DNA of 63,957 nt, the filler included. It is 5 parts of 5 records of this genome, joined end to end, with 100 filler letters (N's around TTAATTAATTAA, not from the genome) between each part and the next. Parts side by side here need not be neighbours in the genome. Positions count along the whole stretch, not along the records: positions 44,547 to 57,150 come from SRR31156797_5331; 4 more parts are not named here. The stretch is one strand, 5' to 3'. Positions 9,787 through 57,314 of this stretch are shown piece by piece. Every line of letters begins with the position of its first letter. Position 1 is the first letter of the stretch. A program made the position numbers and the translations under genes. The notes below the pieces were generated by a model that did no database searches, had not been told where the DNA came from, and saw only the letters and a program-made list of their open reading frames with translations.

Positions 9787-9787
9787 C

Positions 9788-9853
9788 GCTGCATTTGTCT
9801 ATGAAAAATTAAAAAACGACCCATCAATCCGGGGAATTAACCTTTTTGACTGA
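9788..9853 (+). CDS. 3' end of an unidentified CDS (partial)
   Basis: Open frame from the contig edge reads AAFVYEKLKNDPSIRGINLFD*, convergent with acrB. Too short to identify. Confidence 0.3.
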   Translation, partial: AAFVYEKLKNDPSIRGINLFD

Positions 9854-18134: not shown

Positions 18135-18234
18135 NNNNNNNNNNNNNNNNNNNNNNNNNNNNNNNNNNNNNNNNNNNNTTAATTAATTAANNNNNNNNNN
18201 NNNNNNNNNNNNNNNNNNNNNNNNNNNNNNNNNN
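18135..18234. other. Artificial contig spacer
   Basis: 44 N + TTAATTAATTAA + 44 N. Confidence 0.98.
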
Positions 18235-18235
18235 G

Positions 18236-41700: not shown

Positions 41701-44446
41701 GGGCTATGAGTTCGGCCTTCTGGGCATGCGCCTGAGTGAACGATACAACGATCTGGCCCAGAAATGCCGATGTTATAACACCTTTGCCAATTACGTACAC
41801 CCGTGGGGAAAACATATGAGGGAGGCTGATTCCTTTAACAAGGAAGGATATCGGGCAGGCCTTCAATCGGGGGAGTTCCAGTTTGCCGGATACTGTTTGT
41901 GCAATACCCTTTTTAATCTGTTTTACCAGGGGATCCATCTGGAAACGATTCTGACGTTATGTTTAAAATATCGCCAATTCGTCCGGAAAACACGCAATCG
42001 GATGGCCGAGGGCGTGATTGATACGGTCCATTGGGTTCTGGTCAACCTAATCGGTCGAGGGGAAGGAGACTTTGATGTTTTTCGTGAGAAGTTAAAAGAG
42101 AAGGTGCCATTCAGGAAAAGCCTGCAATCAAAGGATCTTGTTTTGGTTTCATGCCACTATCAGGTATACCGGGCCGAGATTCAATATCTTTGCGGTAACC
42201 CGGATCATGCCCTTGAATCCATCCTGGAGGCAAGGACATGGCTGGCCCATGTGGTGGGAAGTGTCCTTTACGCAAAGCACAATTTTGTATACTCCTTGAT
42301 CCTTGCCGATCTCTATCCCGGCGCTTCCGAAGAGAGGAAACGTCAATATCTGAGGCGGATTGAAGCCAACCAGGAACAATTGAAAGTCTGGGCGGACAAC
42401 TGCGAGGCAAATTTCTTGCATAAATATCTTCTTGTGGCCGGGGAGTTGGGGCGTATTACCGGAAAAAACCAAGAAGCGAAAGCCTGTTACCACGAAGCCG
42501 GCCGTTTGGCGAAACAGAACGAATATGTCCAGGATGAAGCGCTGGCCAATGAACTGGCGGCCAAGTTTTTTCTTGGGGGGAAAGAGAAGGGGTTGGCGGC
42601 ACCCTATTTGAAAAAGGCCCACTACGGGTACGGAATTTGGGGCGCCATGAGAAAGGTTGAAAACCTGGAGATGGCCCATCATCACTTTTTTATGAAGAAA
42701 ACCGTTGACGGTAATCGATGCATGGTCGATTCCACCCATTCGGAAGGGCTGGATCTGTCCACGATGATGAAGGCTTCCCGGGCCATTTCAGGCGAAATTG
42801 TCCTGGATCGTCTACTGGCCAAGTTAACCAAAATATTGATTGAAAACGCGGGGGCTCAAAAAGGGTTTTTTATCCTGGAGTCCCACGGGAGGCTCCTGAT
42901 CGAGGCGGAGGGAGATATTGACAGGGCCGAAGTCCGGATTTTACAGTCCGTTTCCGTTGAAAAGAGCGAAAATATTTCTCCCGCAATTATCCAATATGTG
43001 GCAAGAACCCGTGAATATGTGGTGTTGAACGATGCCGGCCGGGAAGGTATGTTTAAAAGCGATCCCCATGTCCAATCCCGCCATGTGAAGTCCGTGGTCT
43101 GTGGCCCCATCCTTCACAAGTCCAGATTGATCGGTATGTTTTACCTGGAAAATGCGCTGATATCAGGCGCCTTTACCCCTGACCGGTTGGAGGTGCTTAA
43201 ACTCCTTGCCTCTCAGATCGCCATTTCCATGGAAAACGCCATGCTTTATTCGAACCTGGAGTCCCAGGCGCGTAAAACCAAGGCTGCCAATGCAAAGCTT
43301 GAGCGGGAAATTCGGGAGAAAAAAAGGGCCGAGGAAAAATACCGGGGTATTTTCGAAAATGCCGTTGAAGGGATTTTTCAGGCCGGCCCAAGGGGATTGT
43401 TTGTAAACGCCAACCCGGCCCTGGCCCGGATTTTGGGCTTTGAATCTCCCGATGAACTGATCCTAAAGATAAATGATATGGGGCACCCACTCTACGTTGA
43501 TCCTGTGCAGCGGGAAAAATTGCTTCAATTGATGCGGAATCGCAAGACCATCTCCGGGCATGAGGTTCAATTGCGTCGAAAGGATGGGAGCAGCATATGG
43601 GCCTCTCTCCATGCGCGACCCGTTTTCGATGAGAATGATCAACTTCTGTTGATCGAAGGCATCCTGACGGATATCTCCCGGCGAAAGGCGGAGGCGGAAG
43701 CGTTGCGTGAAAGGGAGGAATCCTTGCGCCGGGAAAACATACGCCTGCGATCGGATATCGGGGACCGCTACAAGTTCGGGAACATCGTGGGCAAGAGTCC
43801 GGGCATGCAAAGGGTCTACGGGCTGGTTTTAAAGGCTGCCGCCAATGATGCAAATATCATCATCTATGGGGAATCGGGTACCGGAAAGGAGCTTGTTGCC
43901 AAGGCCATCCATCGTTTAAGCGGCCGCAAGGGGAAAAAATTTGTTTCCGTGAACTGCGGGGCGATCCCCGAAAATTTGCTTGAAAGTGAATTTTTTGGCT
44001 ATAAAAAGGGTGCCTTTACAGGGGCTTATGCTGCCAAGGAAGGTTTTTTTGATCTGGCCCATGGCGGGACCCTGTTCCTGGATGAATTGGGGGAAATAAA
44101 TCTGAACCTGCAGGTCAAACTATTGCGGGCCATTGAAGGGGGCGGCTATACACCGGTTGGGGGGAATGAAGTGAAGCGGCCCGATTTTCGCCTGATTGCC
44201 GCCACCCATCGGGATTTGCAGGAACAGGTAAAGCAAGGGTTGATGCGCGAGGATTTTTTTTATAGAATTCATATCATTCCCATCCTTATCCCCCCCCTAA
44301 GAGATCGGAAGGAGGATCTTTCTCTCCTGGTGGAACATTTCCTGAAAGAATACGGCAAAGACGGGGATGTGCCGAATCTTTCGGGAAATGACATGGAAGC
44401 CATGTTGGACCATGATTGGCCCGGCAATGTCAGGGAGCTTCAAAAC
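38780..44446 (+). CDS. Multidomain Ser/Thr kinase-like / NTPase / GAF / PAS / sigma54 activator, 3' partial
   Basis: HKDINP, YVSPEQTGRMNR, DFYSLG (kinase). GYGGVGKT, FLDDLQWAD, GGNPFF, FLHDRVQQAA (NTPase). GAF, PAS (YRGIFENAVEGIF), then GESGTGKE, GAFTGA, LFLDE, WPGNVRELQN (bEBP AAA+). HTH lost at contig end. Confidence 0.92.
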
Positions 44447-44546
44447 NNNNNNNNNNNNNNNNNNNNNNNNNNNNNNNNNNNNNNNNNNNNTTAATTAATT
44501 AANNNNNNNNNNNNNNNNNNNNNNNNNNNNNNNNNNNNNNNNNNNN
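44447..44546. other. Artificial contig spacer
   Basis: 44 N + TTAATTAATTAA + 44 N. Confidence 0.98.
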
Positions 44547-44559
44547 TTTTAACAAATCC

Positions 44560-47214
44560 TTATCTTAATGACATTGATTCGGCGACCTGACTTCCTAATG
44601 AAACCCATTCATTGTTATTCCAATATTCCAATTCGTAATGATCGCCTATTTCAATGCAGTTACCATCATTCCGTGGGATAAAACGGATATCACTTATAAT
44701 AGATGGTTTGTCTAACTTTAATCCTACCCAACTATTACTGGCAGTTGGCCCATCGTAAAAGGTCAGAATATCATTGTCAAAAGCTTTTTCAATAGTGTTC
44801 CCTAAGTTTTTAAAACTACCGGGCGTTCCAATTGGTGTACCTGATATTTTCTCATCGTTCTCATCTTTAAATGAAAGTTCGCATAACGTGGAATGGCATC
44901 CTTCAGCCCCAATATACCTGACATACTTAAACTCTTTATTGCAATTAACAGGGATATTGTAAAAAACAGGTTCTGTGTCACCCTTATAGGTATAAAGAGT
45001 AACAGCGTCTGAGAAATCAGGTTTATTAGCTCCCTGAAAACGACCATTATTCATCCGATTATTAGACCAAAATCCTCCCCATAAAAACTTACGCTTTAAT
45101 ACTATAGTCTCAAGTACATCCATATCTGGCTTAATGGTCTGAACAGTACTGTCTTTATGAAGAACAAAGGGGTAACTTACCGCTTTCATTGTTTTATCCT
45201 TGCTATAATAAACTGGTAAATACAATACATCTAATCCCAAATTCTTAAACTGACAAGTTTTATTTGCTACTTCTCCCCATCCTACAGGTTGCCATTCCCT
45301 ATTATTCACACATACATAAACATGATCAAACTCATTCTTTGCAGATTGGTACAAATCAATAGTTACATCACTTGTTGGTATATAATCTGAAGTAATATCA
45401 ATAATATGCGCATCATTTAGAGGTGAAGGTATCCATTCGTTATCTTTCCGAGTGGCCATCGGACTCTGTGGATTTACAGAGAATCTCTTCCTAAGTACTT
45501 TTGAAACCGGCAAATTAAAAAGTCCCACACCGGGGGTTAGAGTAACCTGACAATAAATAGATTGGTTATTTTGATCGATGATTGAATTAAATTCATGACC
45601 TATGGTTGAAAATGCACATAGTGGCATATTATCAACTGCGGTAGGAATACCTAAAGAGCGTAATATAGATGCAAAGTATTGTGTTTCTTCATGGCACCCC
45701 CCAATTTTGGTTTTAAGAATATCCATGGTGGTAACATGAGGTAACGAAATGTTTAAGTGCTGCCAGTTAAAATCCAGCTCCGGAGCAATTCTCCGTGTTG
45801 CCGCCAACACCGAATGCTGAGGGACATGAATGTTTTTATCAAATCGGGAGCAAGTATCTGTAATCAAAAATTGCCAGTGTTGATTTACTGCCCCTTCATA
45901 TGTATTTAAAAACACACTGTTATTAGATAAAGAAGCTTCGATACATTTTCCAGTATTTTTATTCATTATTTTATATTGGTTTTCCCCTACCGGAATAATG
46001 GCCCATAACTGTTTTGGTAAATAGTTATACGGATTACACCCGATATACATATGACTATTTTCTAAAATTTGTGCATCCAAACAATTAGCTTTTTCAGAAG
46101 TATTGTTTTCTGGCTGAAGTACAAAAAAGCCATAATCTGCATTCTGGATATGAAAACCTCGAGGATTACTATCCATTTCATTCTTCTTATCAACACAGAT
46201 AGTTTTATCTACACGCTCATTAACTTCAAGGTACTTGTTTGACGCAACATTTTTTATAGCATAGGAAGCTCCATCTTTTATTTTAAAATTCTCAAAATCG
46301 TAATAATATTTTTCATAGGGTATTATTTCTATATAGTCGATTGCCATCACATCATCAACAGCATAAAACTCAATAGTATTAACTCCTTTTTTTAGATCAA
46401 TTTGAACTTTTAATGGATGGATGGGATTCGTCTGTAAATTATCTAAAGGCTGTAAATTTAAAACCTGACTATTATGTTTGTTCACGACCATTAAAACTTT
46501 GTTCCAATGATCTGTATTAGAGTAATGAAAAACTAATGTTTTGCGTCCGGCATTGGCACTTATAACAGAATCGAACATTAGTGCAGTAGTGTTGGGTTTT
46601 AACTTTACAAACTGTTGCCCTTCTTTATTGCCCGAAATAATTTGAGCATGTTGCGGATTTTGGTTTACCGCATAATATTTTTCTCCAGCTTCGAAATAAA
46701 TACTATTAAGCAAAGGGGAATAAATATCATGATACTGGCTATAGAAATCTGAAATTCCTTCTTTCCCATACTTATACGGAAGAATATATTCACAAAAATT
46801 ATTAAAACTCACCTCTTTATTCCATGGGGCATTTTTCCAGGTATCAAAGGCTATATCAATATGCCCAATCAGAAAATCAGCCGTTACTACATCCTTGTCG
46901 GACATAACATGAAGAGAAGATATCAACCAATTGGCATTCTTTTGTAATAGCATGTTATCTCTGCTTAATTTTGGAACCTTAGCCAGATCTCCATAGATCT
47001 TACTCATATCGGCATACGCATCTCCACAATAAGAATAATTGTATTCGAGATTATCAATTAAAAACTGGGCAGCTTTCAATTTCTCAGGATTAGGGTCTTC
47101 CTGCTTGTAATGTATTAAAACCTTATTAAATGGCTTATTCGTTATTCCAAAATAATAGTACAGCGATACTCCTAGTATAATAGTAACAAGAATTAAAATG
47201 GTAGTTCTTTTCAT
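44560..47214 (-). CDS. Membrane-anchored transglutaminase-like protein with CBM-like, ricin-B lectin and C-terminal discoidin-like domains
   Basis: N-terminal TM, KLKAAQFLIDN, FCEYILPYK, beta-sandwich (LKKGVNTI...IDYIEI), ricin-type repeats (YAIKNVASNKYL, KQLW, YKIMNKNTGKCI, NQHW), GGC...LRSLGIP...GHEFN, AFDNDILTF, IRFIPRNDGN. Confidence 0.7.
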   Translation of the reverse strand: MKRTTILILVTIILGVSLYYYFGITNKPFNKVLIHYKQEDPNPEKLKAAQFLIDNLEYNYSYCGDAYADMSKIYGDLAKVPKLSRDNMLLQKNANWLISSLHVMSDKDVVTADFLIGHIDIAFDTWKNAPWNKEVSFNNFCEYILPYKYGKEGISDFYSQYHDIYSPLLNSIYFEAGEKYYAVNQNPQHAQIISGNKEGQQFVKLKPNTTALMFDSVISANAGRKTLVFHYSNTDHWNKVLMVVNKHNSQVLNLQPLDNLQTNPIHPLKVQIDLKKGVNTIEFYAVDDVMAIDYIEIIPYEKYYYDFENFKIKDGASYAIKNVASNKYLEVNERVDKTICVDKKNEMDSNPRGFHIQNADYGFFVLQPENNTSEKANCLDAQILENSHMYIGCNPYNYLPKQLWAIIPVGENQYKIMNKNTGKCIEASLSNNSVFLNTYEGAVNQHWQFLITDTCSRFDKNIHVPQHSVLAATRRIAPELDFNWQHLNISLPHVTTMDILKTKIGGCHEETQYFASILRSLGIPTAVDNMPLCAFSTIGHEFNSIIDQNNQSIYCQVTLTPGVGLFNLPVSKVLRKRFSVNPQSPMATRKDNEWIPSPLNDAHIIDITSDYIPTSDVTIDLYQSAKNEFDHVYVCVNNREWQPVGWGEVANKTCQFKNLGLDVLYLPVYYSKDKTMKAVSYPFVLHKDSTVQTIKPDMDVLETIVLKRKFLWGGFWSNNRMNNGRFQGANKPDFSDAVTLYTYKGDTEPVFYNIPVNCNKEFKYVRYIGAEGCHSTLCELSFKDENDEKISGTPIGTPGSFKNLGNTIEKAFDNDILTFYDGPTASNSWVGLKLDKPSIISDIRFIPRNDGNCIEIGDHYELEYWNNNEWVSLGSQVAESMSLR

Positions 47215-47265
47215 AGTGATATTTTGCCTGGTGTTTTATAAAGCTATTTTTATTTAATCAATTGT

Positions 47266-48372
47266 TTAATTAAGGTGCATACATAGTCTTCCCCACATAT
47301 TTTGATCATGCTCCTGATCATTCCATAATACAGCGCGGGCTTTACCTATTATATGATCTTCCGGAACAAATCCCCAAGTTCTGGAATCCAAAGAACCATT
47401 TCGGTTATCACCCATCATAAAATAATAGTTTTGCTGTATCACATAACAACCAGCTGATTTTCCATTAATATATATTTCATCATCCTTAACGCTTAATGTA
47501 TTTCCTTCATAAACCGAAATTAACCTATCGTAAACGGTAATGTTTTTCGCAGAAATCTCAATCGTATCACCCTTTGATGGAATATATAGGGGGCCGTATT
47601 CATCTTCATGCCAACTCAAATTTTCCACCCTCAACCTGGGAAATACATCTTCAGGATACCACTCAAAAGGATGATATTGTATTTTTAACATTTCATTCTG
47701 CAACATCAATCCCTGTGCTTTTTGTTTTGTAGCCAGGAAATGATAAACACTATCAGTTTCTGATATACTCCAATAACTTTTGATATTATTACTCATCAAA
47801 AATGAAGGGATTAATTGAGATGGTCCATGAATAAGATACCGAAATTTAAAATCGGACTTTGGCTCTATATGCTCCTGATTACAATACACATTACCATCTT
47901 TAATACGAAGAGTATCTCCCGGTAGTCCAATACACCTTTTAATATATGCTATTCTGTTTTGAACAGGCAAATAACAGGTTTTGCTTTCCTTATTAAAAAA
48001 GGATTCATTATTGTTGAATTCCCAACTATTCTTTAACAAGTAATAATTCTGGGTTGGATCATCTACAAAAACCGTATCTCCCAAAGGAAAGTTAAAAACA
48101 ATGATGTCATTTCGTTTAATGTTTCCATAACCCCATAGCCTTTTTATACCATCTTTTGTTATCCAACGATCTCCATATACTAATTTATCCACCAAAATAT
48201 AATCACCTGTTTCAATAGTTTCTTCCATCGAATCGGAAGGGATATAATAAACCCCAAAAACCATGGTACGCATAATGAAAAAAACAGCATATCCTAAAAC
48301 ACCAACAAATGCTATTTTATAAAGCACTTTAATGGTCTTTTTGAAGATTCCGGATTTCCAATATATCTTCAT
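47266..48372 (-). CDS. lepB: Signal peptidase I
   Basis: IPSDSME (catalytic Ser), YIKRCIGLPGD (catalytic Lys), GDNRNGSLDSRTWGFVP. ATG 48372 directly after the acrB stop. Confidence 0.92.
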   Translation of the reverse strand: MKIYWKSGIFKKTIKVLYKIAFVGVLGYAVFFIMRTMVFGVYYIPSDSMEETIETGDYILVDKLVYGDRWITKDGIKRLWGYGNIKRNDIIVFNFPLGDTVFVDDPTQNYYLLKNSWEFNNNESFFNKESKTCYLPVQNRIAYIKRCIGLPGDTLRIKDGNVYCNQEHIEPKSDFKFRYLIHGPSQLIPSFLMSNNIKSYWSISETDSVYHFLATKQKAQGLMLQNEMLKIQYHPFEWYPEDVFPRLRVENLSWHEDEYGPLYIPSKGDTIEISAKNITVYDRLISVYEGNTLSVKDDEIYINGKSAGCYVIQQNYYFMMGDNRNGSLDSRTWGFVPEDHIIGKARAVLWNDQEHDQNMWGRLCMHLN

Positions 48373-48373
48373 T

Positions 48374-51300
48374 TTAAGCACTAAATTTTGATTTATATAA
48401 ATAATAATAGCATAATGGAACAAAATACAGACTCACTAAAGTACCTAGTATCATACCTCCGATTACAGTGAGTGCAAGCGGGCGTTGAAGTTCACTTCCC
48501 ATATCGCTTCCCCATAAAAAAGGAACCAAAGCCAAAATGGTCGTTAAGCTTGTCATAATAATGGGTTTAATCCTTCGGTGACCCGCTTTTTCTATCGCTT
48601 TAAAAATCGGGATACCATCCTTCCGAAGGCGATTAATGGTATCTATTTTAAGAATGGAATCATTGATGATAATTCCGCACATCACTACAATACCAATCAT
48701 CGACATGAGGTTGATTGAACCTCCGAATATCCACAGCATTAAAAATGCACCTGCGATATCAATGGGTACTTCGAGCAGTACAATTAGAGGCTGAAGAAAC
48801 GATTCGAACTGGGCAGCTAAAATAAAATATAGCAATAACAAAGAAATCAACAATACGATGGCTAACTCCTGAATTAAACTTTGCGTTACAAACCAACTCC
48901 CGGAAAAACTAACATTTACATTTGCTATCTGCTTGATTATATTTCTGATTTGAGGTATTAATTTATCCGGAGAAATGACAGAAGCGTCAAATTCAACAGG
49001 AACATACGCACCATCCTTGCCTCCATGCAATACCTTATAATCTGTTACAGGGACTAAATTTACTAATTGATTGATGGAGATTAAGTCATCGTTTTTATTC
49101 CGAACTTTCAGGCTTCGGAGCATATGCTCTATCTTCTCTTGCTGATCGGATAAAACGATAGGAACATATTGTGCTCCAGTTCTTAATATGCCTATTTGAT
49201 ATGAATTGATAGCTGTTTTTAAGGTTGTATACAAATTACCCTGATCCACTTGGTATATGGCTAATAAAGCCGGCTTTAAACGCACTTCTAAAAATGACTC
49301 CGAAGCAGTTGGCTGAAGCTCGTTAACTGCAATATTTTGGTTTAAACGATGGATGATATCGTTCATTTGAGCCAATTGTGGCACTCCATTTCGTGTATTA
49401 GAACTTATTCTTGCTTCTACATCTGCCTGTTTTGAACTAAACAGCTTTTCAAAAATGGTCCCGGGTCGTTGAAAATTAAAACTGCATTCGGGGTAATTCT
49501 GCGTTAAATAATTTTCAATTTGCGCTTGAAGCTTTTTCACAGATTTTCCTTTTTTCACTTCCAGATAGATTACCGATTCCTGCAACGATAAATCCATATC
49601 CTTATGCATTATATACTGTTGATTTCCAATAAAAGCATTGCTCATTTTCAGATTTGAATGGCACATCGCAATGATAGAATCAGCCCGATTGATATTTTCC
49701 GTAACGTTTATCCGGTTATTCCAGTCAATTCGTAACAACAATTCAGTTTGCTTAAATTGAGGGAAACGCTCTTTCTTCAGGATAAGTCCAAGTCCAACAC
49801 TCACCATCAACATCATAATGAAGGAAATAAACACGACTCCACGATATTTAAAAACCCAGTGAAATCCTTTTTCATACACTGACTCAATATCTACAAGGTT
49901 CACTTTTCCCAGCCACTTGCTCACTTTTCCGTTATCTATCCCCTTTTTATTACGAAGCCAAAACAAGCGGTACAAAGTAGGAAGCAAAGTAATAGAAACA
50001 ATTAACGACACAACTAAACCTACAGTAACGGCCATGGCCTGATCGTAGAATAATGCACCCGAGATTCCGCTTAAAAATATCAAGGGTAAAAATACAGCAC
50101 AGGTTGTTAACACTGAACTAATCAATGGCCGTATCACTTCATTTGTACCTTTAATACAAGCCTTTGGTAAGGATTCCCCGTTTGACAGATACTGTGAAAT
50201 ATTATCGATCACAATAATAGAATTGTCGATCATCATACCTACACCCAATATCAATCCCGACAAGGAAATAATATTAATAGACAACCCTATCAAATGAAAA
50301 AACAACACACTGATGACCAATGAAACAGGAATGCTCAAACCTATCAACCAGGGCGATCGGGCATCCTTTAAAAAGAAAAACATGATGAGAAATGCCAATA
50401 ATGCTCCCACGATCAAGCTGGTTTTTAAATTAGATATGGCATACTGCAATAATCCGGTCTGGTCTCTGACGATCTCAAACTTTACATCCTTAAAATCATT
50501 TTCAAAGGTATGAATCAAAGCCTCAACATTAGATTTCAGGTCTTCCATACGGGCATCGGATTGCTTGATTACTGCTAAAGATAAGGCCTGTTGATTCTGG
50601 TTTAAAAAGGCTCCTTGTCGCTCCTCGGATCTCATCTTTACCTGGGCAATATCTTTTAATTGTAATATCCGATCACCCGCTTTGATATAAATATTCTCGA
50701 TATCGTTTATGGTGCGCAAGGCATTCGAAAAACGAATATTATAGCGATACTGACCATCAATTACCTGTAAAGAGCCTAATGAAATATTGTTATTGGTGAT
50801 CGCCTCTTTAATTAAATCCTGTGAAATATTCAGTGGCCGTATTTTCGCCTCATCAGGTAGGATACATAACTCAGGTTCGAGCTGCCCTGTAATATCCACC
50901 ATGGCTACTTCCGAAAGTTGCTCTATGCGTTTTACCACCACATTCTGGCATAATTCACACAATTCCATAAAACGGTTGTCATCCGCTAACGAATCCTTCA
51001 TCCATGTATTGATATAAAACACCGGTAAATCCGAAGCCGAAGCTTTTATAATTGATGGGCGGTCTAAATCTTTGGGTAGTGTCTGCATAGCCGCATCCAC
51101 CTGCTCATTCACATCAATAATAGCATAGTTAATATCTGCCCCATAATTAAAGCGCAAACGTATAATTCCCTTTCCTTCGTAGGATTCACTTGTAATATCA
51201 TCCAAATGCGGTACCTGCATCAGGTTCTGCCGCAATTGACTCACCACTCCATTCTCTATTTCACGCACGGATTTCCCCGTGTAATCCACCTGAACGGTAA

Positions 51301-51427
51301 TTTCCGGAATATTAATATCCGGCATTAACGAAACCGGCAATAACCCGGAAGAAACAATTCCTAACATGAGTATGGCCACAAAGGTCATGATGACGGCAAT
51401 GGGCCGGTGTATAATAAATTTTACCAT
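48374..51427 (-). CDS. RND efflux permease (AcrB family), second paralogue
   Basis: LPVSLMPDINIPEI, GMMIDNSIIV, GIIINDSIL, RIKPIIMTSLTT. 1017 aa. Confidence 0.94.
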   Translation of the reverse strand: MVKFIIHRPIAVIMTFVAILMLGIVSSGLLPVSLMPDINIPEITVQVDYTGKSVREIENGVVSQLRQNLMQVPHLDDITSESYEGKGIIRLRFNYGADINYAIIDVNEQVDAAMQTLPKDLDRPSIIKASASDLPVFYINTWMKDSLADDNRFMELCELCQNVVVKRIEQLSEVAMVDITGQLEPELCILPDEAKIRPLNISQDLIKEAITNNNISLGSLQVIDGQYRYNIRFSNALRTINDIENIYIKAGDRILQLKDIAQVKMRSEERQGAFLNQNQQALSLAVIKQSDARMEDLKSNVEALIHTFENDFKDVKFEIVRDQTGLLQYAISNLKTSLIVGALLAFLIMFFFLKDARSPWLIGLSIPVSLVISVLFFHLIGLSINIISLSGLILGVGMMIDNSIIVIDNISQYLSNGESLPKACIKGTNEVIRPLISSVLTTCAVFLPLIFLSGISGALFYDQAMAVTVGLVVSLIVSITLLPTLYRLFWLRNKKGIDNGKVSKWLGKVNLVDIESVYEKGFHWVFKYRGVVFISFIMMLMVSVGLGLILKKERFPQFKQTELLLRIDWNNRINVTENINRADSIIAMCHSNLKMSNAFIGNQQYIMHKDMDLSLQESVIYLEVKKGKSVKKLQAQIENYLTQNYPECSFNFQRPGTIFEKLFSSKQADVEARISSNTRNGVPQLAQMNDIIHRLNQNIAVNELQPTASESFLEVRLKPALLAIYQVDQGNLYTTLKTAINSYQIGILRTGAQYVPIVLSDQQEKIEHMLRSLKVRNKNDDLISINQLVNLVPVTDYKVLHGGKDGAYVPVEFDASVISPDKLIPQIRNIIKQIANVNVSFSGSWFVTQSLIQELAIVLLISLLLLYFILAAQFESFLQPLIVLLEVPIDIAGAFLMLWIFGGSINLMSMIGIVVMCGIIINDSILKIDTINRLRKDGIPIFKAIEKAGHRRIKPIIMTSLTTILALVPFLWGSDMGSELQRPLALTVIGGMILGTLVSLYFVPLCYYYLYKSKFSA

Positions 51428-51435
51428 TTTACTGT

Positions 51436-51477
51436 TACACAGAGATTCACAGAGTACCGCAAAGCTCTACTGAGTTT
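51436..51477. repeat. Degenerate decamer array (CACAGAGATT-type) downstream of the GxxExxY gene
   Basis: CACAGAGATT CACAGAGTAC CGCAAAGCTC TACTGAGTTT (51438-51477). TACACAGAGATT (51436-51447) is the exact reverse complement of 51892-51903. Confidence 0.8.
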
Positions 51478-51857
51478 TAATTATTTGAATTGATATATCT
51501 CTTTAAGCCATTTTTTAGTAACTTTTCGTGAAAGTTTATGAGCAAACCTATTTCATATTCTCCTAATCTTAAATATGTTAAAATTTGAGCTTCATGAACT
51601 TCCGTTAAAGCCTCAACATGTTTTAGTTCAACCACCACTTTATCCTCAATTAACAAATCTATCCTGTAACCATGATCTAATTCAATTTCCTTGTAAACTA
51701 TAGGAAGTACCTTTTCTTTTTCAACTTTTAATCCTTCTTGCTTAAGTTCGTAACTTAAACATTCCTGATAAGCAGATTCCAACAATCCCGGACCAAGTAC
51801 TCTGTGGACTTCGATCGCCTTCCCTATAATTATTTTTGTTATATCGTTAGTTCTCAT
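51477..51857 (-). CDS. GxxExxY protein (PD-(D/E)XK nuclease-like)
   Basis: LGPGLLESAY (GxxExxY), YRIDLLIEDKVVVELK, HEAQILTYL, GLLINF. 126 aa. Confidence 0.95.
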   Translation of the reverse strand: MRTNDITKIIIGKAIEVHRVLGPGLLESAYQECLSYELKQEGLKVEKEKVLPIVYKEIELDHGYRIDLLIEDKVVVELKHVEALTEVHEAQILTYLRLGEYEIGLLINFHEKLLKNGLKRYINSNN

Positions 51858-51888
51858 AATTAAATGTTACATATCCCCTTCTAATAAT

Positions 51889-54800
51889 TTAAATCTCTGT
51901 GTATCTCAGTGATTTCCTGGCGAATCTCCGCGAAACTCCAAAATTCATAAACAAAGGCAACCACACAAAAATGGCCACTAATGAAAACAGTAAGCCTCCA
52001 ATACTTCCACAAGCCAACGAAAACCAAAACCCACCGTTTTGTCCATCTAATAAAAAGGGGATCATCCCCAGTATGGTAGATAATATCGTGAGCAGAATAG
52101 GAATCACTTTATGATTAAAGGCTTTGATATAAGAAGCGAGTCTGCTTTTCTGGTTGTAGTTTCTTACATTATTATTGAAATCATTGATAATGTACAAAGC
52201 CGAGTTGACGGTAATTCCACAAAGCAAAATCATAGAAGCATATCCTCCCTGATCAAATTTTAATTTAAAAATGGCGAAGGTGAGAAAAACACCAATAAAA
52301 GAAATGGGAATAGTGGCAATAACCACCAAAGGCTGCACCAGCGATTCTAACAAAATGGCACATATAAAATAAATAATACCTACCACCAATAGCAACAACC
52401 AATATTGTGTTTTCTCCTTATAATTCCAATTATACATATTCTTAAAACCATCCTGAGCATAATATCCCAAGGGTAATTCATTTTCCAGTTTTTCAATATT
52501 CTGGTTCAATACTTTTTTTGACAATTGGTAAGGACCTATAAAGTCGTACTCTACATTTAAACTGTATTGCTGGTTCGTTTTTCGGATGAGACTCCCGGTG
52601 CGTTCTTTTACAATTTTTCCAACATTTTTTAATCGTAAATAATCCTGATTGGCACTCAGCAAACTATTTTTAAACTGCCATAATTGAGCCGTTTCATTGT
52701 TTTCCCCTTTCACTATAATAGGATAGGTTCCATTTATGGCGTAATACATACCTGCATACAAATCGGAAGGTGAATAAAAGGACAAATTATTAAAAACACT
52801 TTGTAAAGAACTGTTATTCGCCACCAATACAGCCGGATTTAAATCCATCACAAACTCATATTTAGGCTTACCACGCCAGGAAGTTCCAGACTGAATAAAA
52901 ACTTCATTAATACGAGGGCTTAATAGTAAACTATCTTTTAAATTTTGTGCATAGTAAACCAATTGATCGTAGTTATATCCTTTTAGCTCTATACTGCTGC
53001 TTTTACCACCATCAGATAACGCATTGCTAAAGCCCCTGCCAATACCATATACACTAAAATCGGCCCCTCCAGTCTCTATAGCCTTATTCTGAAGCTCCTG
53101 TTTTAAATAATATGGAAATGTACTATTCTCTCCTTCTTTGGTAAACGCTATTTCTATGGTTGAATGATCAATACTATTAATCGATGAAACAAATCGTTTC
53201 ACTTCCTTAAACTTTGACAGTAAGTTTTCAAAATCAAGAAATACCTTATTCATTTGTTCCAAGGTTGCTCCATCCGGCATACTCACATTAACCCACAAGC
53301 GGGTCTGCTGATCATCCCAGTCCATACTACTTTGATCCATGTAAGAAGTAAAATAATATAAACTCCCACCTAAAATCTTATCTACCCAAGGACGAACTTC
53401 TGATTTATAATAGGAATTTCCCAAGGTGTTATTATACAACTCACCCCACCAGGTAAGTTTTTCACCTTTATGTTCATCAATTATTATTTCTTCAGGTATT
53501 AAGAATGTGGGCAAACCAAAACCCCAGATCATAACTCCTATACCGACCCATTGCCAGCGTTTACTAAATGTTATCATTTTTGTATATCTACCACTCCACC
53601 TGAAAGATCTTGCTTTATGTTTAAACCACTTTCCTGTTTTTTTTTGTTGCGAGTTACAAGTTTCAGGTTGATGTACAGCTCTTATAAGTTCCGAGTTCTG
53701 GCTTGATGCAATGCTATCCCTGATTAATCCCCTTTGCACTTTGCTCTCCGCCCTTCGCTTTCCTAACTGATTACTGTTTACTGAACACTGTTCACTGATA
53801 ACTGTTAACTGTTTCCTGAACACTGCCCTTCGCCCTCTCAGTGGAAACTTATCCATAATAGCCGGAATAAACCATAATGCCACACACAAAGAAACACTCA
53901 GGTTGATAATCATTACCCAAGCAAAATCCACCAGGTTGGCACGTTGTTCTTCTTTTAAAAAGAATATCACCACCATGGAGCCAATAGTTGTTAATGTAGC
54001 TGCCAAAATCGCTAAAAATGATTTTTTATTTCCGGTATGCCGGATATGATCTACCATCACAATTGTGTTATCAATCATAATTCCCAGAGATACAGTAACT
54101 CCTGCCAAACTATACAAGTGAATCTCAACATCCAGTAAATAGTAAAATAGAACACCTGCCGTTAGGTTAACTATCAGGCTTATTAATATAATTAACAGGT
54201 ATCGCCATCTGCGACTTATCATTAATACAAAGAGCAATAAAATAAGGATGGCCATCAATGCCCGTGCGCTAATCTTTGAAATTTCCTTTTGAATAACTTC
54301 TGAAGCATCGTAATTCAACATCATTTTAAACCGATCAGGAAAACCACCTTCCAAACCTGCTACAACAGCTTTTACCTTTTTAGATAATTGAACCTGATTA
54401 GCCCCTTTTTCGGAATAAATAACCAGGTAAATGGTATTTAGTCCATTAATACGGTAATAGGATTCCGGCGTAACTACTTTGGGTTGAATATCGGCCACAT
54501 CGGTCAATCGGATGATTCTTTTTCCCTGGTTACCAACAATAATTTCGCTCCAGATTAAACTATCCGATGGCTGACCTTTAAAAGTAAGAAACATGTTCCC
54601 TTTATCTTCCCAGCTTATATTGCCTAACTCCTGGCTTTGCAAATAATTTTGAATGGCTAGTTGAATGTCTCCGGCTTCCAGACCAGCTGATCGCATTTGA
54701 AATTTATTATAATTTACGACCCACTGAACCGGACTAGCTCCTGATACTATAACATTACTTACATCACTGAGTTGACCAATATAGGTGGCAATATGTTCCT

Positions 54801-55260
54801 CGGCATATTTTTGCAATTGATAATTACTTCCATCGCCATTTACATTGTAAACCATCAATACCGGATTGTTATTATCATTCCCGTTATTGTAAGTAACTAC
54901 AGGACGAGTAACTCCATCAGGTAGTTTTTTGTAGGCACTCCGCACCAATGAAGCCACCTCAAAGCGTGCCGCATCCACATCTGCCTTATCCTTAAAAGTC
55001 AACACAATATTGCCCGTTCCATTGGACGATTCTGAAGTGACATCTTTTACGCCCCGTACAGAAGATAGTACACCCTCTAAAGGAGAAGTCACCTCTTTTT
55101 CCAATACTTCGGCAGAAACATCTCCCCAACGAAAACACACGGTAACACTTTTACCCTGATGCCCCGGATTTAACCTGATAGGCAACATGGGTATTAAGGC
55201 CAAACCAACAATGGTAAACACCAGAAAAATAACGTTTATGGAAAAGCTGTTTTTGTACAT
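51889..55260 (-). CDS. RND efflux permease (AcrB family), first paralogue, with repeat-derived loop insertion
   Basis: LEKEVTSPLEG, GIMIDNTIVM, GITVNSAL, KVIPILLTILST. ATG 55260 preferred over TTG 55278. Confidence 0.92.
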   Translation of the reverse strand: MYKNSFSINVIFLVFTIVGLALIPMLPIRLNPGHQGKSVTVCFRWGDVSAEVLEKEVTSPLEGVLSSVRGVKDVTSESSNGTGNIVLTFKDKADVDAARFEVASLVRSAYKKLPDGVTRPVVTYNNGNDNNNPVLMVYNVNGDGSNYQLQKYAEEHIATYIGQLSDVSNVIVSGASPVQWVVNYNKFQMRSAGLEAGDIQLAIQNYLQSQELGNISWEDKGNMFLTFKGQPSDSLIWSEIIVGNQGKRIIRLTDVADIQPKVVTPESYYRINGLNTIYLVIYSEKGANQVQLSKKVKAVVAGLEGGFPDRFKMMLNYDASEVIQKEISKISARALMAILILLLFVLMISRRWRYLLIILISLIVNLTAGVLFYYLLDVEIHLYSLAGVTVSLGIMIDNTIVMVDHIRHTGNKKSFLAILAATLTTIGSMVVIFFLKEEQRANLVDFAWVMIINLSVSLCVALWFIPAIMDKFPLRGRRAVFRKQLTVISEQCSVNSNQLGKRRAESKVQRGLIRDSIASSQNSELIRAVHQPETCNSQQKKTGKWFKHKARSFRWSGRYTKMITFSKRWQWVGIGVMIWGFGLPTFLIPEEIIIDEHKGEKLTWWGELYNNTLGNSYYKSEVRPWVDKILGGSLYYFTSYMDQSSMDWDDQQTRLWVNVSMPDGATLEQMNKVFLDFENLLSKFKEVKRFVSSINSIDHSTIEIAFTKEGENSTFPYYLKQELQNKAIETGGADFSVYGIGRGFSNALSDGGKSSSIELKGYNYDQLVYYAQNLKDSLLLSPRINEVFIQSGTSWRGKPKYEFVMDLNPAVLVANNSSLQSVFNNLSFYSPSDLYAGMYYAINGTYPIIVKGENNETAQLWQFKNSLLSANQDYLRLKNVGKIVKERTGSLIRKTNQQYSLNVEYDFIGPYQLSKKVLNQNIEKLENELPLGYYAQDGFKNMYNWNYKEKTQYWLLLLVVGIIYFICAILLESLVQPLVVIATIPISFIGVFLTFAIFKLKFDQGGYASMILLCGITVNSALYIINDFNNNVRNYNQKSRLASYIKAFNHKVIPILLTILSTILGMIPFLLDGQNGGFWFSLACGSIGGLLFSLVAIFVWLPLFMNFGVSRRFARKSLRYTEI
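51892..51932. repeat. Inverted degenerate decamer array upstream of the GxxExxY gene
   Basis: AATCTCTGTG TATCTCAGTG ATTTCCTGGCG AATCTCCGCG. Reverse complements match the downstream array. Encodes the last codons of acrB. Confidence 0.8.
53646..53841. repeat. Patchwork of degenerate 7-bp tandem repeats inside acrB
   Basis: GTTGCGA GTTACAA GTTTCAG GTTGATG (53646-73). CTTTGCA CTTTGCT CTCCGCC CTTCGCT (53732-59). AACTGAT TACTGTT TACTGAA CACTGTT CACTGAT AACTGTT AACTGTT TCCTGAA CACTGCC (53765-827). Confidence 0.85.
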
Positions 55261-55281
55261 TCTTTTAGCTCTTAGCAAAAT

Positions 55282-55323
55282 AACTGTTCACTGATAACTG
55301 TTCACTGACAACAGTTCACTATT
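55282..55323. repeat. Intergenic 7-bp tandem repeat array
   Basis: AACTGTT CACTGAT AACTGTT CACTGAC AACAGTT CACTATT. Shares the exact 20-mer ACTGTTCACTGATAACTGTT with 53787-53806. Confidence 0.85.
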
Positions 55324-56398
55324 CACCCAAACTCACCGGACTTTCATGAGCCAGATTCAGATTATTACTTACAATTACCTGATCGCCCGGTTTTAAACTA
55401 CCATCGTTAATACACACTTCAACACTGTTTTCATCCGCAGTTTCTACATATACCCAATTGGCTTTGCCATCTTTATACACAAAAACTACCTTACGATTTT
55501 GCCTGTATAGTAAAGCCGACTTAGGAATAATGACACAATTCGGAACTTCTTTTTTAACCCTGATTTTTACATTCATGCCATCAATGAGCTTCTCATCCTG
55601 GTTAGAGACCTGTGCCGTTACCTTAATTAAGCCCTCTTCGATAAACGGATTGATTGAAATAATCTTACCCGTTTTTTCCACATTGGGCAATGCAAAGGGC
55701 AATACACTTACATTTTGTCCTTTATCAATCAGATTTAACTCCCCTTCCAACACATGGAATTTTACTTCCATATCATCCATATCGATAACCTGACAACAAT
55801 AATCATATTGCGACGACTGGTTGTATTTTTTTGCTAACAAGTTGGAAACTATACCGGCAATGGGCGACACAATTTTTGTTTGTTCATAATTACGTTTGGC
55901 CTCCTTTAAATCCGACAAGGTCTGGTTATAATTACTGCGTATCCTGAATGATTTCATAAAAGTATCCGGAACCTTGGCAGTATCTTTTAATGTATAGCCA
56001 TGCCCCAGTAATAAATCTGTTAAATCAATCAATGATTTATCATACACATTTTGCGCATCATTTAACTTCTTTAAATAATCTACAGAATCAATTACAGCAA
56101 TCACCTGTCCTTTTTTTACTTGATCACCTTCTTTTACAAGCACTCGCGTTATTTGTCCACTCACTTTAAAAGGCAGAATTACTTTTTCTGCAGCCACAAT
56201 AGCCCCATTACTAATCAGCTCGCGCGAAAAAGTACCCTGTCTAACCGCAGTTGTTTTTACCTTGATCTCTTCTTTTTCATTGTATGTTTTTTTAATCCCA
56301 TCGGTGCTTGGCTGCGAAGCCTGAGAAAAGGTACAACTTGTAATAGCAAAAGATGCAATTACAAATAACAATAAAATAAAAGCTTTATATTTTTTCAT
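55319..56398 (-). CDS. RND periplasmic adaptor (MFP), lipoprotein
   Basis: Lipobox AITSC, SGQITRVLVKEGDQVKKGQVIA, IVSPIAGIV, LIDGMNV, IPKSAL, LKPGDQVIVS. Confidence 0.92.
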   Translation of the reverse strand: MKKYKAFILLLFVIASFAITSCTFSQASQPSTDGIKKTYNEKEEIKVKTTAVRQGTFSRELISNGAIVAAEKVILPFKVSGQITRVLVKEGDQVKKGQVIAVIDSVDYLKKLNDAQNVYDKSLIDLTDLLLGHGYTLKDTAKVPDTFMKSFRIRSNYNQTLSDLKEAKRNYEQTKIVSPIAGIVSNLLAKKYNQSSQYDYCCQVIDMDDMEVKFHVLEGELNLIDKGQNVSVLPFALPNVEKTGKIISINPFIEEGLIKVTAQVSNQDEKLIDGMNVKIRVKKEVPNCVIIPKSALLYRQNRKVVFVYKDGKANWVYVETADENSVEVCINDGSLKPGDQVIVSNNLNLAHESPVSLGE

Positions 56399-56466
56399 TT
56401 AAATGATTGACTATTTTGATATCGACTATATAAAAGTTCGAGTAAATCTACTCAATAATAAAAAAA

Positions 56467-56999
56467 CTATTTTGCACAAATTTCTCTATAAAGTTTTGTC
56501 ATTTCCTTATCTCCGAATGGTGTCCCTACAAGCTGTACTTTATTTTCCTCATCTATTAGAAGCCCTGCATTTATAACCCATATAGGAAATTCTTTTTTGT
56601 AATAACTATATTTAAATAACCTATCATAAGCAACATATGAATCCGCTTCTATATGTTTAATTTGTTCAACTTCCTTAAGAAAGTGTTTCGTTTCACCTCC
56701 CTGAATTACAAAAAGCAAAGTGCTATTGGGAGCCATTCCTAAAGAATCCATCTTCTCCTGCCATTTAATAAACTTAGGGTAACATGGCTCACATCCTTCC
56801 TTTAAACATACCACTGATATATATTTATACTTATTACGAAAGTCTTTAAAACTCATGTAATTATTGCCCTTCCATATTGAATCCAATGTGTGCAGGTTTA
56901 ACTCTCTTCCTACCGAGTTTTCTATATCTTGCTTTATACTATTTTTGCTTGTACATGCAAAAAACAGCATATACAAGAAATTACAATCGTAAATCTCAT
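56467..56999 (-). CDS. Thioredoxin-like (CxxC) Bacteroidota lipoprotein; signal peptide possibly frameshifted
   Basis: CLKEGCEPC and LLIDEENKVQLVGTP. FFAC lipobox is in frame, but the natural-looking ATG at 56999 is one base out of frame. Confidence 0.55.
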
Positions 57000-57102
57000 G
57001 AGTTTTAACATTTAATATCAAGACTAATAGCCAATTTGCTTGACTTATGCATAGCCTATCATATCCATTTGTATTTAATTCTTTCTTAATATATATTCGC
57101 GG

Positions 57103-57150
57103 TTATATTTCTAGATTAACATACCCAAATGGCTCTTCCTGATCTTCAAA
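57103..57150 (-). CDS. 3' end of an upstream CDS (partial, unidentified)
   Basis: Open frame from the contig edge reads FEDQEEPFGYVNLEI*, same orientation as the cluster. Confidence 0.35.
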   Translation of the reverse strand, partial: FEDQEEPFGYVNLEI

Positions 57151-57250
57151 NNNNNNNNNNNNNNNNNNNNNNNNNNNNNNNNNNNNNNNNNNNNTTAATT
57201 AATTAANNNNNNNNNNNNNNNNNNNNNNNNNNNNNNNNNNNNNNNNNNNN
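57151..57250. other. Artificial contig spacer
   Basis: 44 N + TTAATTAATTAA + 44 N. Confidence 0.98.
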
Positions 57251-57314
57251 TTTGTTTTGTAGGCGAAGCCCTTTTTTATAAATAACAAATAACAGAGAAA
57301 TATTGGAGGAAGTG

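Follow-up and report, generated by a model that had tools for sequence, protein, structure and literature searches.

The described systems closest to the locus analysed here include the RAYTs, HUH tyrosine transposases of which a genome typically has one, the homing enzymes, among them I-Ssp6803I of the PD-(D/E)XK type, and integron cassettes, whose ORFs lack promoters, all run in the direction of upstream transcription, are each accompanied by an imperfect inverted-repeat site and can be exchanged at one position. ORF-bearing intervening sequences occur in the 23S rRNA of Coxiella burnetii and Leptospira; their ORF, of the S23p (four-helix-bundle) kind and about 120 codons long, lies within inverted sequences, and the element is described, in the passages that treat it, as sporadic and selfish (PMC4990558, PMC11270868). 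Free-standing homing endonuclease genes, such as T4 mobE, are found in phage and bacterial genomes (PMC2790892), and intergenic direct repeats of the heptamer TAACTGA are reported from Beggiatoaceae, Cyanobacteria and some Bacteroidetes (PMC4679880).

We consider it an evenly balanced question whether the segment at 51428-51939 of the window (the whole 64-kb stretch of DNA that was analysed) is one copy of a widespread, undescribed small gene cassette, consisting of a GxxExxY nuclease gene for about 125 aa and two inverted motif-array arms; no paper describing such a cassette was found in the literature searched. It has the ORF size, the enclosing inverted sequences and the sporadic occurrence of the rRNA intervening sequences, and in a sister genome (L001) the same junction carries a gene of the intervening-sequence ORF family with inverted heptamer arms of its own. 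Unlike them, it lies not in a 23S or 16S rRNA helix but between two protein-coding genes, those of two RND permeases, encodes a PD-(D/E)XK protein, and has 7-nt motif arrays with non-complementary spacers. With REPINs and RAYTs (PMC3116915, PMC3337134) it shares a nuclease-type gene flanked by inverted short repeats, which in relatives are also dispersed as gene-less pairs, and a long residence in lineages; unlike in RAYTs, the enzyme is of the PD-(D/E)XK type and a genome can have as many as 20 matches to it, the repeats are tandem 7-mer arrays and the gene sits within operons. No HUH tyrosine transposase (Y1) gene was found at the locus, where family matches are solely to PD-(D/E)XK.

The resemblance to homing endonuclease genes, in being a small nuclease gene between conserved genes that is present, absent or replaced with sharp boundaries and near-identical flanks (PMC2790892, in part), rests on the population pattern of occupied, swapped and empty junctions; homing endonuclease genes are not known to have bracketing arrays of their own motif. 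The TAACTGA repeats, like the arms, are short-period tandem units in intergenic gaps just 5' of start codons, horizontally patchy and of no known mechanism, but they are direct and, in the passages on them, have no tie to enclosed genes (PMC4679880), and the GxxExxY arms use another motif with a period of 8-11 nt. Further short-period arrays lie in the operon studied here, at 55280-55326 and, within permease 1, at 53764-53818; the former, together with the heptamer arms of the L001 cassette, are of the TCAGTTA/TAACTGA type (PMC4679880). The co-oriented, putatively promoterless ORF, the imperfect inverted repeats beside it and its exchangeability at one position recall integron cassettes, although GxxExxY cassettes are scattered singly in operons and not stacked in an array. 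In contrast to insertion sequences and MITEs, of which one in relative G007 has 15-bp ends and 8-bp duplications, the outer termini of the cassette are not conserved (TTAAC in 5 of 44).

A cassette inserted between two permease genes

The first-pass annotation had described a 126-aa GxxExxY gene interrupting an acrB-acrB operon, and all of its coordinates check (Table 1). It had also proposed that the upstream array had been absorbed into the last codons of acrB, and translation bears this out: the permease 1 protein ends in ...SRRFARKSLRYTEI*, with the stop codon at 51891-51889, and its last codons are the left array in translation, the native C-terminal tail being replaced by array-encoded residues. 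On the other side, the right arm stops 10 nt ahead of the permease 2 ATG.

Table 1. Coordinates, in the window, of the cassette, its arms and the neighbouring genes
Feature	Position	Strand	Remarks
Adaptor gene	56398-55319	-	First of these genes along the - strand
RND (AcrB-type) permease 1, upstream host gene	51889..55278	-	Profile matches; probable ATG 55260
Whole cassette	51428..51939	-	512 nt; limits are those of the segment swapped in the sister genome
Left (upstream) arm	51892..51939	-	CGCGGAG (51932-51926), CGCCAGG (degenerate), CACTGAG (51911-51905), CACAGAG (51901-51895); spacing 10-11 nt
GxxExxY gene (P0001)	51477..51857	-	126 aa; TIGR04256 and PF13366 matches
Right (downstream) arm	51428..51474	-	CTCAGTA (degenerate), CTTTGCG (51464-51458), CTCTGTG (51454-51448), CTCTGTG (51444-51438); reverse complement of left motif
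RND (AcrB-type) permease 2, downstream host gene	48374..51427	-	Profile matches

The limits of the cassette are set by comparison with relatives. In the sister genome, whose permease 2 is 96% identical and whose flanks are 96-97% identical, exactly 51428-51939 is swapped for 540 letters that carry a four-helix-bundle gene, belonging to the rRNA intervening-sequence protein family, with CAGTnAA/CTAACTG heptamer arms. A contig of run X2 has the same swap, its joint passing from 51427 to 51940 with 512 letters skipped and 540 between, so that both alignments place the boundaries at 51427/51428 and 51939/51940. In a more distant relative (L038) the junction is empty, permease 1 stop and permease 2 ATG being separated by 5 nt; L002 and L006 have spacers of about 185 nt without such arrays, and in L004 the junction holds a GxxExxY gene of 83% identity, amid five complete hairpins of the same units. 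We conclude that the cassette is an insertion at an operon stop/start junction, and that relatives differ, at the level of DNA, by its gain, loss or replacement; the search for empty alleles that the first-pass annotation had proposed found this junction empty in one relative and differently occupied in others. By eye, some cassettes occupy one junction across several genomes (L103, L105, L122, L123), which long residence or a host function would account for no less well than selfishness.

The cassette also lies, as had been claimed, outside the standard IS classes, since it shows no transposase, conserved termini or duplication: profile searches at the locus matched no transposase family but only the PD-(D/E)XK family, no target-site duplication was seen at the cassette boundaries in the window, and Rfam gave no family match at E up to 1 over 44560-57140. 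Its protein matches TIGR04256 (E 3.7e-44, 149.8 bits against a cut-off of 35) and PF13366, PDDEXK_3 (E 2.4e-42, 144.4 bits against a cut-off of 22), and contains G24-L-L-E27-S-A-Y30 together with the catalytic residues D67 and E77-L-K79 (D...E-x-K). Across an alignment of 91 sequences G22, G24, Y30, D67, K79, Q91 and N108 are invariant, and E27 and E77 are kept in at least 90%. The structure model (pLDDT 94.1) has a restriction-endonuclease-like core, with weak best fold matches to Cas4 (4ic1, E 2e-3, TM 0.39-0.49), lambda exonuclease and Hjc; Foldseek with the model gave no match at E up to 1e-3, a PDB sequence search none at E up to 1, and PADLOC returned weak Cas4 rows only (E 8.6e-5) and called no defence system. 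These data predict a nuclease with a minimal RecB/Cas4-like PD-(D/E)XK fold, in agreement with the PD-(D/E)XK-like assignment already made for GxxExxY proteins, for which no function was found on record in the literature searched.

Arms and protein across the family

Within the window itself the arms are modest. The first-pass annotation had counted four units of about 10 bp in each; three good 7-nt units stand in each arm, and 'four' is generous, the fourth being degenerate. The perfect 12-bp inverted pair (51436-51447 / 51892-51903) is confirmed, a perfect inverted match of at least 12 between the two 120-nt flanks arising in 1 of 1000 dinucleotide shuffles, and the arms can, as claimed, pair in several registers (12 nt at 100%, 17 nt at 88%, 23 nt at 74%). 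The decamer CACAGAGATT has exact copies in the window solely at both arms, but with one mismatch it has 4 matches against 3.5 expected; the arm similarity score of 24 falls below the 95th percentile for permuted partners (31), and no second array of the motif was found elsewhere in the 64-kb window. Since these statistics are modest, the case rests on other loci.

For these we took, from the 203 of 301 Bacteroidia genomes that have the family, the 90 GxxExxY loci with the highest scores among about 616 matches, a choice that favours canonical members, and counted the motif C[AG]C[AG][AG]A[GT]. It occurs 179 times upstream, against 8.8 +/- 2.9 (maximum 19) in shuffles, and, as its complement, 200 times downstream, so that inverted CACAGAG-type arrays are strongly enriched at other GxxExxY genes, as the first-pass annotation had suggested should be checked. 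At least one motif is present in 85/90 loci and at least two on each side in inward orientation in 44/90, an arm-gene-arm topology is seen in 46/90, and in 36/90 a locus's own flanks score higher for inverted similarity than the 95th percentile for permuted partners; a full two-sided array is missing in 46/90, and the flank repeats are direct rather than inverted in 27/90. Typical arms consist of three to four copies of C-R-C-A-R-A-G, 8-11 nt apart. At 36 four-helix-bundle loci, by comparison, the motif was found once on each side (matches 1/2/3/1) and arrays of it in 0/36, and the CRCARAG-type motif is thus specific to the GxxExxY protein family. The gene takes the orientation of its host operon: in 43 loci both neighbours point the same way as the gene, and in none do both point the other way. 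Conserved termini of the form TTAACC.../...GGTTAA, suggested by eye, were present in only 5 and 4 of 44 and were discarded. Taken together, the array enrichment at other GxxExxY genes and the empty or differently filled junctions identify a cassette subject to gain, loss and replacement.

These counts bear on the idea that the arrays are generic extragenic hairpins or terminators, beside or inside one of which a small gene happened to land. Other short-period arrays do occur in the operon (55280-55326; 53764-53818), motif hairpins without genes exist, and the statistics of the window are unimpressive, all of which speaks for such a coincidence. It is nevertheless largely refuted by the motif counts (179 and 200 against about 9 expected), by the absence of arrays of this motif from the four-helix-bundle genes of similar genomes (0/36) and by the way in which the arms track the protein across contexts; in G001, moreover, motif arrays number about 20 in 6.5 Mb, and both GxxExxY genes are among their sites. 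We therefore hold coincidence to be very improbable indeed.

The tracking of protein by arms is seen in 4913 pairs of loci from different contexts, for which protein identity and flank 6-mer similarity are correlated (rank r 0.31, reached in 0 of 500 permutations). A labelling of three motif classes on the tree was tried and abandoned as too coarse, 43/110 loci falling under 'other', mostly with other topologies. Between two paralogues in one genome homology is confined to gene plus arms, divergent paralogues have other motifs (TACGAA, CACTAAA), and each of 15 intact copies examined has its own motif variant. Most copies within a genome are old, with a median nt identity of 62% and of 91% in the best pairs and no sign of recent bursts among those compared, and a search among relatives of G007 for an empty-site pair gave no genome alignable at the flanks. 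Gene and arms are inherited and duplicated as one unit. The C-terminal tail reads R-x-[VA]-N in 35/35 loci whose motif begins CGC and in 1/28 of those with CAC, which differ at motif position 2, and one pair of proteins 92% identical differs in both tail and motif position 2; the association is confounded by descent, with only three independent pairs on supported branches (p 0.25).

Possible pairing of the arms in RNA

The first-pass annotation had entertained a looping-out of the ORF in the mRNA, in the manner of an rRNA intervening sequence. Folding of 51420-51950 did yield the predicted closing stem, the minimum-free-energy and centroid structures both closing the ORF by pairing between the arrays, but not significant stability (z -1.68; 7 of 100 shuffles fold as well). 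The motif letters in the two arms of one cassette are more complementary (0.94) than those in arms of different cassettes (0.84), whereas for the spacers the two values do not differ beyond chance (0.58 against 0.55), and complementary motif letters with non-complementary spacers fit putative arrays of binding sites. Among transition mismatches at 42 loci, sense-strand G.U pairs are rarer (36) than A.C (74). The last bias could suggest a structure in the antisense strand or in DNA, but we do not conclude this, since the asymmetry of the arms is small (G at unit position 4 in 14/146 units upstream and 31/165 downstream) and an A-rich leader gives the same bias.

These results do not so far support the looping-out proposal, which stays a possibility of low likelihood: the spacers are non-complementary, the wobble bias runs the opposite way and the fold is unexceptional. 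A fuller version would have the arms pair in the pump mRNA and RNase III cut the interrupted stem, the ORF being released and the pump messages separated, with the motif merely the look of slippage-prone stems. In keeping with this are the inter-array stem in both folds, the parallel with the architecture of rRNA intervening sequences, the fact that the alternative occupant of the junction is a gene of just that protein family, the closer match of variable motif letters within cassettes, and the strict co-orientation (43 against 0), by which the arms are co-transcribed with the operon. However, the non-complementary spacers allow only 7-bp helices with loops between them, the fold energy is ordinary and G.U pairs are the rarer (a comparison confounded by A-rich leaders); ribosomes translating the tail of permease 1, to which the left arm belongs, would melt a stem there; and pairing alone leaves unexplained why one motif family recurs in 85/90 loci and is absent from four-helix-bundle cassettes. 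An RNA-level intervening cassette is, in our view, unlikely.

Gene-less arrays, possible spread and significance

Arms also occur without the gene. In three genomes the motif forms 27, 90 and 22 doublets, where the reversed control gives 2, 2 and 1, and dispersed gene-less inverted pairs of the arm motif are present in relatives G001, G007 and G302. In G001 an arm...arm element without the gene, about 270 nt long and with arms resembling those of the resident gene, has five to eight gene-less matches (69-85% identical), of which five are near full length (80-85% identical). In G007 the commonest gene-less hairpin rides in a 149-nt MITE, whose 15-bp ends are unrelated and which makes 8-bp duplications, which indicates that some hairpins spread by another system. 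Decay is apparent in G111, where 13 of the 16 matches are fragments and three cover the greater part of the profile, one of these three having an internal stop. Rfam searches of five hairpin-rich loci returned only chance-level miRNA and SAM-II rows, far under gathering scores.

We favour the reading of a selfish cassette in which the nuclease gene is transcribed with the host operon and the arms serve as the cassette's own recognition sites. The arms would be cis-acting sites recognised by the encoded nuclease itself, possibly via its C-terminal tail, and transcripts reading through from the operon would supply the enzyme; by acting on the arms, or on arm pairs that lack the gene, it may drive spread or retention of the cassette in a mode that would be homing-like or RAYT/REPIN-like rather than DDE-transposon-like. 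Candidates for the movement step are cut-and-paste, copy by repair and recombination, and gene loss would leave gene-less hairpins. No movement event was caught in the genomes compared, nor was a target-site duplication, and the outermost flank is TTAAC in 5 of 44.

The same gene might instead be a resident of the host, a domesticated small nuclease or regulator (in repair, defence or RNA turnover) with the arrays as autoregulatory sites and with ordinary accessory-gene turnover behind its presence and absence. The family is found in 203/301 sampled Bacteroidia genomes (201/299 minus two unpublished genomes), its catalytic residues are conserved, its paralogues are mostly old, by eye one junction is filled in several genomes, and the weak PADLOC matches are to Cas4 (E 8.6e-5), points that speak for this explanation. 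A host function sits less well with insertion at arbitrary operon junctions and overwriting of a host gene's tail, with the substitution of an unrelated cassette at identical boundaries, with frequent decayed copies and fragments (13/16 in G111), with multi-copy gene-less arm pairs, and with genomes that have as many as 20 matches, a separate motif variant standing in each of the 15 copies examined. We regard the host-gene explanation as improbable.

A broader form of the selfish-cassette reading, which we advance only tentatively and lean somewhat against, is that GxxExxY proteins may be nucleases with sequence specificity for the 7-nt motif of their own arms, the C-terminal tail setting its second letter, and that they may define a new autonomous class of 'nuclease plus iterated-site' cassettes. 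Such cassettes would colonise operon stop/start junctions, where four-helix-bundle cassettes would be their competitors, and the hairpins and tandem repeats of short period in the intergenic gaps of Bacteroidota and other phyla would be what is left of them after decay.

Finally, the cassette alters its host operon, in which the C-terminus of an RND efflux permease has been rewritten and both permease genes are separated by the insert. GxxExxY/PDDEXK_3 is a large orphan family, and the tie of this family to a 7-nt motif opens a direct and cheap experiment, in which the protein is set against motif arrays. The cassettes are, in addition, a candidate explanation for puzzling short-period intergenic repeats and, if self-propagating, would make up a type of mobile element overlooked by annotation pipelines and by IS classifications.

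Insertion and exchange at the permease junction

The junction between the two RND permeases was compared one by one in relatives found by a permease 2 search of species-representative genomes. In L001, a Saccharicrinis MAG whose permease 2 is 96% identical to the window's and whose operon is the same, what separates the permeases is a four-helix-bundle gene of 120 aa (TIGR02436, E 6.8e-28) with CAGTnAA heptamers on its upstream side and CTAACTG heptamers on its downstream side. The window and L001 are near-identical as far as ...TTTATGAA(G)TTTT and align again from the permease 2 ATG, with no relatedness over the entire stretch between these points. Support separate from the annotation of the L001 assembly comes from a 19.5-kb contig of sequencing run X2, which may represent the same organism as L001: its flanks are 96–97% identical, and its joint from 51427 to 51940 skips 512 letters and carries 540 instead. 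In L038 (61% identical) just 5 nt lie between the permease 1 stop and the permease 2 ATG, so that the acrB–acrB junction exists in differently occupied alleles and also in the empty state that the first-pass annotation had proposed to look for. In L004 (69% identical) a GxxExxY gene that shares 83% identity with that of the window lies immediately upstream of permease 2, placed between the first and second of five complete ~100-nt hairpins (L004:1-1035); these are built of the window's unit type with decamer spacing, each as left array, A-rich loop and right array, with a conserved spacer of ~45 nt between one hairpin and the next. At the junctions of L002 and L006 the spacer is ~185 nt long and lacks such arrays, and gene orders in L003 and L005 differ from the window's. 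From these junction states we conclude that 51428-51939 is a cassette inserted at the permease junction, and that cassettes of two unrelated types alternate at this site. At the orthologous junction of L006 (6920-7110) there is a GC-rich hairpin, CCCCTAAAGGGG.../...CCCCCTTCAGGGGG, which belongs to another kind of repeat.

Genes and array units of the pump locus in the window
Feature	Position	Strand	Details
RND adaptor	56398-55319	-	
RND permease 1	55278-51889	-	probable ATG 55260
GxxExxY / PDDEXK_3 gene	51857-51477	-	126 aa; TIGR04256 E 3.7e-44, PF13366 E 2.4e-42
RND permease 2	51427-48374	-	
Signal peptidase gene	same locus	-	
Upstream units			CGCGGAG, CGCCAGG (degenerate), CACTGAG, CACAGAG; 10-11 nt spacing
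Downstream units (reverse complement)			CTCAGTA (degenerate), CTTTGCG, CTCTGTG, CTCTGTG; 10-11 nt spacing

Within the window, the arrays had been described as having four units each; three are clear on each side and the fourth is degenerate on each. The perfect 12-bp inverted pair (51436-51447 / 51892-51903) is indeed present, a perfect inverted match of at least 12 bp between 120-nt flanks arising in 1 of 1000 dinucleotide shuffles, and the upstream array does constitute the last codons of permease 1, into which it was said to have been absorbed. Since the exact decamer is not enriched elsewhere in the window, the window alone makes only a modest case.

Other repeats occur in the same operon. 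The gap from the adaptor stop to permease 1 (55280-55326) is filled by a 14-nt unit made of two heptamers, TCAGTGAACAGTTA, which is present in three copies and is of the TCAGTTA/TAACTGA type, like the arms of L001's four-helix-bundle cassette, and a related array occupies the adaptor/permease junction of L001. Direct repeats of TAACTGA are described in PMC4679880, with no mechanism given. Within permease 1, an in-frame insertion of ~60-75 codons in the central loop (~53598-53830, residues ~485-560) is made up of heptamer-type repeats, in order CAGTGAA/CAGTTAA, GCGAAGG/GCAAAGT and AACTCGG/AACTTGT; it differs in length in L001, is missing in L002, L038 and L006, and is array DNA turned into coding sequence. 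Runs of N around TTAATTAATTAA at window positions 9676-9796, 18127-18244, 44437-44554 and 57142-57262 look like contig-joining linkers, and the pump operon therefore sits on a ~12.6-kb piece (44555-57141).

Family-specific arms

Of the 301 Bacteroidia genomes sampled, 203 have GxxExxY family matches (~616 in all), or 201 of 299 without the two unpublished genomes included. Flanks were analysed at 90 loci, comprising the 30 top returned loci, the next 60 intact matches by E-value, L080 (an intact GxxExxY gene of genome G001), L004 and the window, less L095 (unpublished genome), L124 (start codon not found) and L131 (flank too short); three matches less than ~600 nt from a contig end, two with internal stops and the G001 copy already in the set had been passed over. 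These being the best-scoring members, the sample is biased to canonical proteins.

The enrichment of inverted CACAGAG-type arrays proposed for other GxxExxY genes is borne out. The motif C[AG]C[AG][AG]A[GT] occurs 179 times upstream (shuffles 8.8 ± 2.9, maximum 19) and its complement 200 times downstream, against 44 and 75 in the opposite orientations. At least one motif is present in 85/90 loci, and at least two per side, pointing inward, in 44/90; by nearest motif the topology is arm–gene–arm in 46/90, the remaining 44 being mixed or motif-free on one side. Units are spaced by 8 nt (52 cases), 9 (63), 10 (38) or 11 (18), and the median distances between the arms and the start and stop codons are 19-20 nt. 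When the upstream 120 nt were compared by Smith–Waterman with the reverse complement of the downstream 120 nt, the median score was 26, against 17 for permuted partners, exceeding the permuted 95th percentile in 36/90 loci and the 99th in 17/90; the window's own score of 24 is under the 95th percentile because permuted partners carry the motif too. Direct flank repeats exceed the 95th percentile in 27/90, with scores reaching 127, and at these loci, as in L004, complete hairpins are repeated on either side of the gene.

The four-helix-bundle genes, another small family of the same niche with matches in 48/61 genomes, served as a contrast (of 38 fetched loci, 37 could be located and 36 of these had full flanks). 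The C-R-C-A-R-A-G motif occurs 1, 2, 3 and 1 times across their four flank/orientation classes, and 0/36 loci have arrays of it; by eye, nearly all are flanked by their own kind of inverted heptamer array, which differs from locus to locus. Because these 36 loci lack such arrays, we conclude that C-R-C-A-R-A-G arrays are specific to GxxExxY genes, and we regard a chance meeting of the gene with generic repeats as highly improbable.

Gene and arms as one unit

Gene and arms vary together. Over 104 loci (4913 pairs, after 443 sharing an outer-flank 12-mer were dropped), protein identity correlates with flank 6-mer similarity (rank r 0.31, reached by 0/500 label permutations), mean flank cosine rising from 0.11 at <40% protein identity to 0.34 at >80%. 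Genome G007 has 20 family matches, and each of the 15 copies examined has its own motif variant (CACAGAT, CACAAAG, CGCAAAG, CGCAGAT). In two G007 paralogues with 91% identical genes, homology is limited to gene and arms, yet one has CACAAAG and the other CGCAAAG arms, each on both sides. Divergent paralogues have other inverted arrays (TACGAA, CACTAAA, ATTACAGTGA; L221-L224 in G007, L229 in G099, L212/L216, L228), the TACGAA type being shared by similar paralogues in G007 and G099, which suggests that motifs are subfamily-specific. By eye, L103, L105, L122 and L123, from four genomes, have both neighbour genes in common and differ in their arm units, suggesting long residence at one junction with both arms changing in concert.

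A C-terminal tail, R-x-[VA]-N, is found at 35/35 CGC-type and 1/28 CAC-type loci (mutual information with motif letter 2 0.61; null 95th percentile 0.27); it is not translated repeat, since the gene's stop codon lies ahead of the arm. In a phylogeny that leaves out the tail residues the motif type switches 11 times, but supported branches offer only three independent pairs (3/3 in the same direction, p 0.25), and direct reading of letter 2 by the tail is a lead rather than a demonstration. Among 91 sequences, G22, G24, Y30, D67, K79, Q91 and N108 are invariant and H18, E27, E77, H88, Y95 and R120 are at least 90% conserved. The structure is predicted confidently (pLDDT 94.1, pTM 0.88); the PDB holds no sequence relatives, and structural matches to Cas4 (4ic1, 4r5q), lambda exonuclease, the AdnAB nuclease and Hjc are weak (0 at E 1e-3). 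Residues, model and fold matches together point to a minimal RecB/Cas4-like putative nuclease with a predicted intact active site. PF13366 is listed as 'Unknown' in a table of a PD-(D/E)XK survey (PMC3424549). Among the papers listed by literature searches covering few subscription journals, and thus no proof of absence, none deals with GxxExxY function or flanks, and none of those on heptamer repeats, the protein family of the IVS and similar topics describes array-flanked cassettes.

Motif doublets number 27 in G001, 90 in G007 and 22 in the genome of L004 (reversed control 2, 2 and 1), most of them distant from any GxxExxY gene. A gene-less ~270-nt element of G001 is made up of three units, then ~170 nt of non-coding DNA, then three inverted units, its arms resembling those of the intact resident gene L080; between 5 and 8 other sequences match it at 69-85% identity, and five of these are near full length at 80-85%. 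Its copies (L257-L262) share a conserved non-coding core that contains a small hairpin, and their inverted similarity continues for ~25 nt past the arrays. The commonest hairpin of G007, of CTCTGTG/CACAGAG arrays, lies inside a 149-nt MITE (e.g. L233-L242; ~19 near-full-length copies at 92-99% identity, two at 79-82%) with 8-bp target duplications and unrelated 15-bp terminal inverted repeats, GTTACTATTCACCCC/GGGGTGAATAGTAAC, and gene-less hairpins therefore need not all stem from GxxExxY. In two MITE copies the loop contains an additional, GC-rich hairpin. Neither a target duplication nor a conserved terminus was found for the GxxExxY cassettes themselves.

DNA sites, RNA stem and operon transcription

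The first-pass annotation had also proposed that the transcript loops out the ORF in the manner of an rRNA intervening sequence. A stem between the arrays does close the ORF in both the MFE and the centroid prediction; the energy of the fold, however, is ordinary (z -1.68; 7/100 shuffles fold as well). Where units are clustered on both sides (31 loci), the agreement of motif columns is 0.94 within a cassette and 0.84 between cassettes, whereas that of spacer columns is 0.58 and 0.55 ± 0.06, a chance level, so complementarity is limited to the 7-nt units. Transition mismatches at 42 loci give 36 G.U and 74 A.C pairs on the sense strand, the opposite of the prediction for a selected sense-RNA stem, although the asymmetry between the arms is slight and might result from A-rich leaders. 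With ordinary fold energy, non-complementary spacers and reversed wobble bias, excision at the RNA level finds no positive support, and we consider it unlikely, compatible though it is with a DNA-level account.

The gene is co-oriented with both neighbours at 43 of 104 loci and opposed to both at none (8 mixed, 53 undetermined); as the arms are symmetric, such a bias suggests that the cassette depends on transcription from the host. That the gene is a resident of the host with the arrays as its operators also seems unlikely to us. The account that we favour, with roughly even confidence, is a selfish nuclease cassette whose arms repeat its own recognition motif: the encoded nuclease would recognise the arrays and might have a role in spread, and the cassette, which is gained, lost and replaced at operon junctions, would ride on the operon's transcription.
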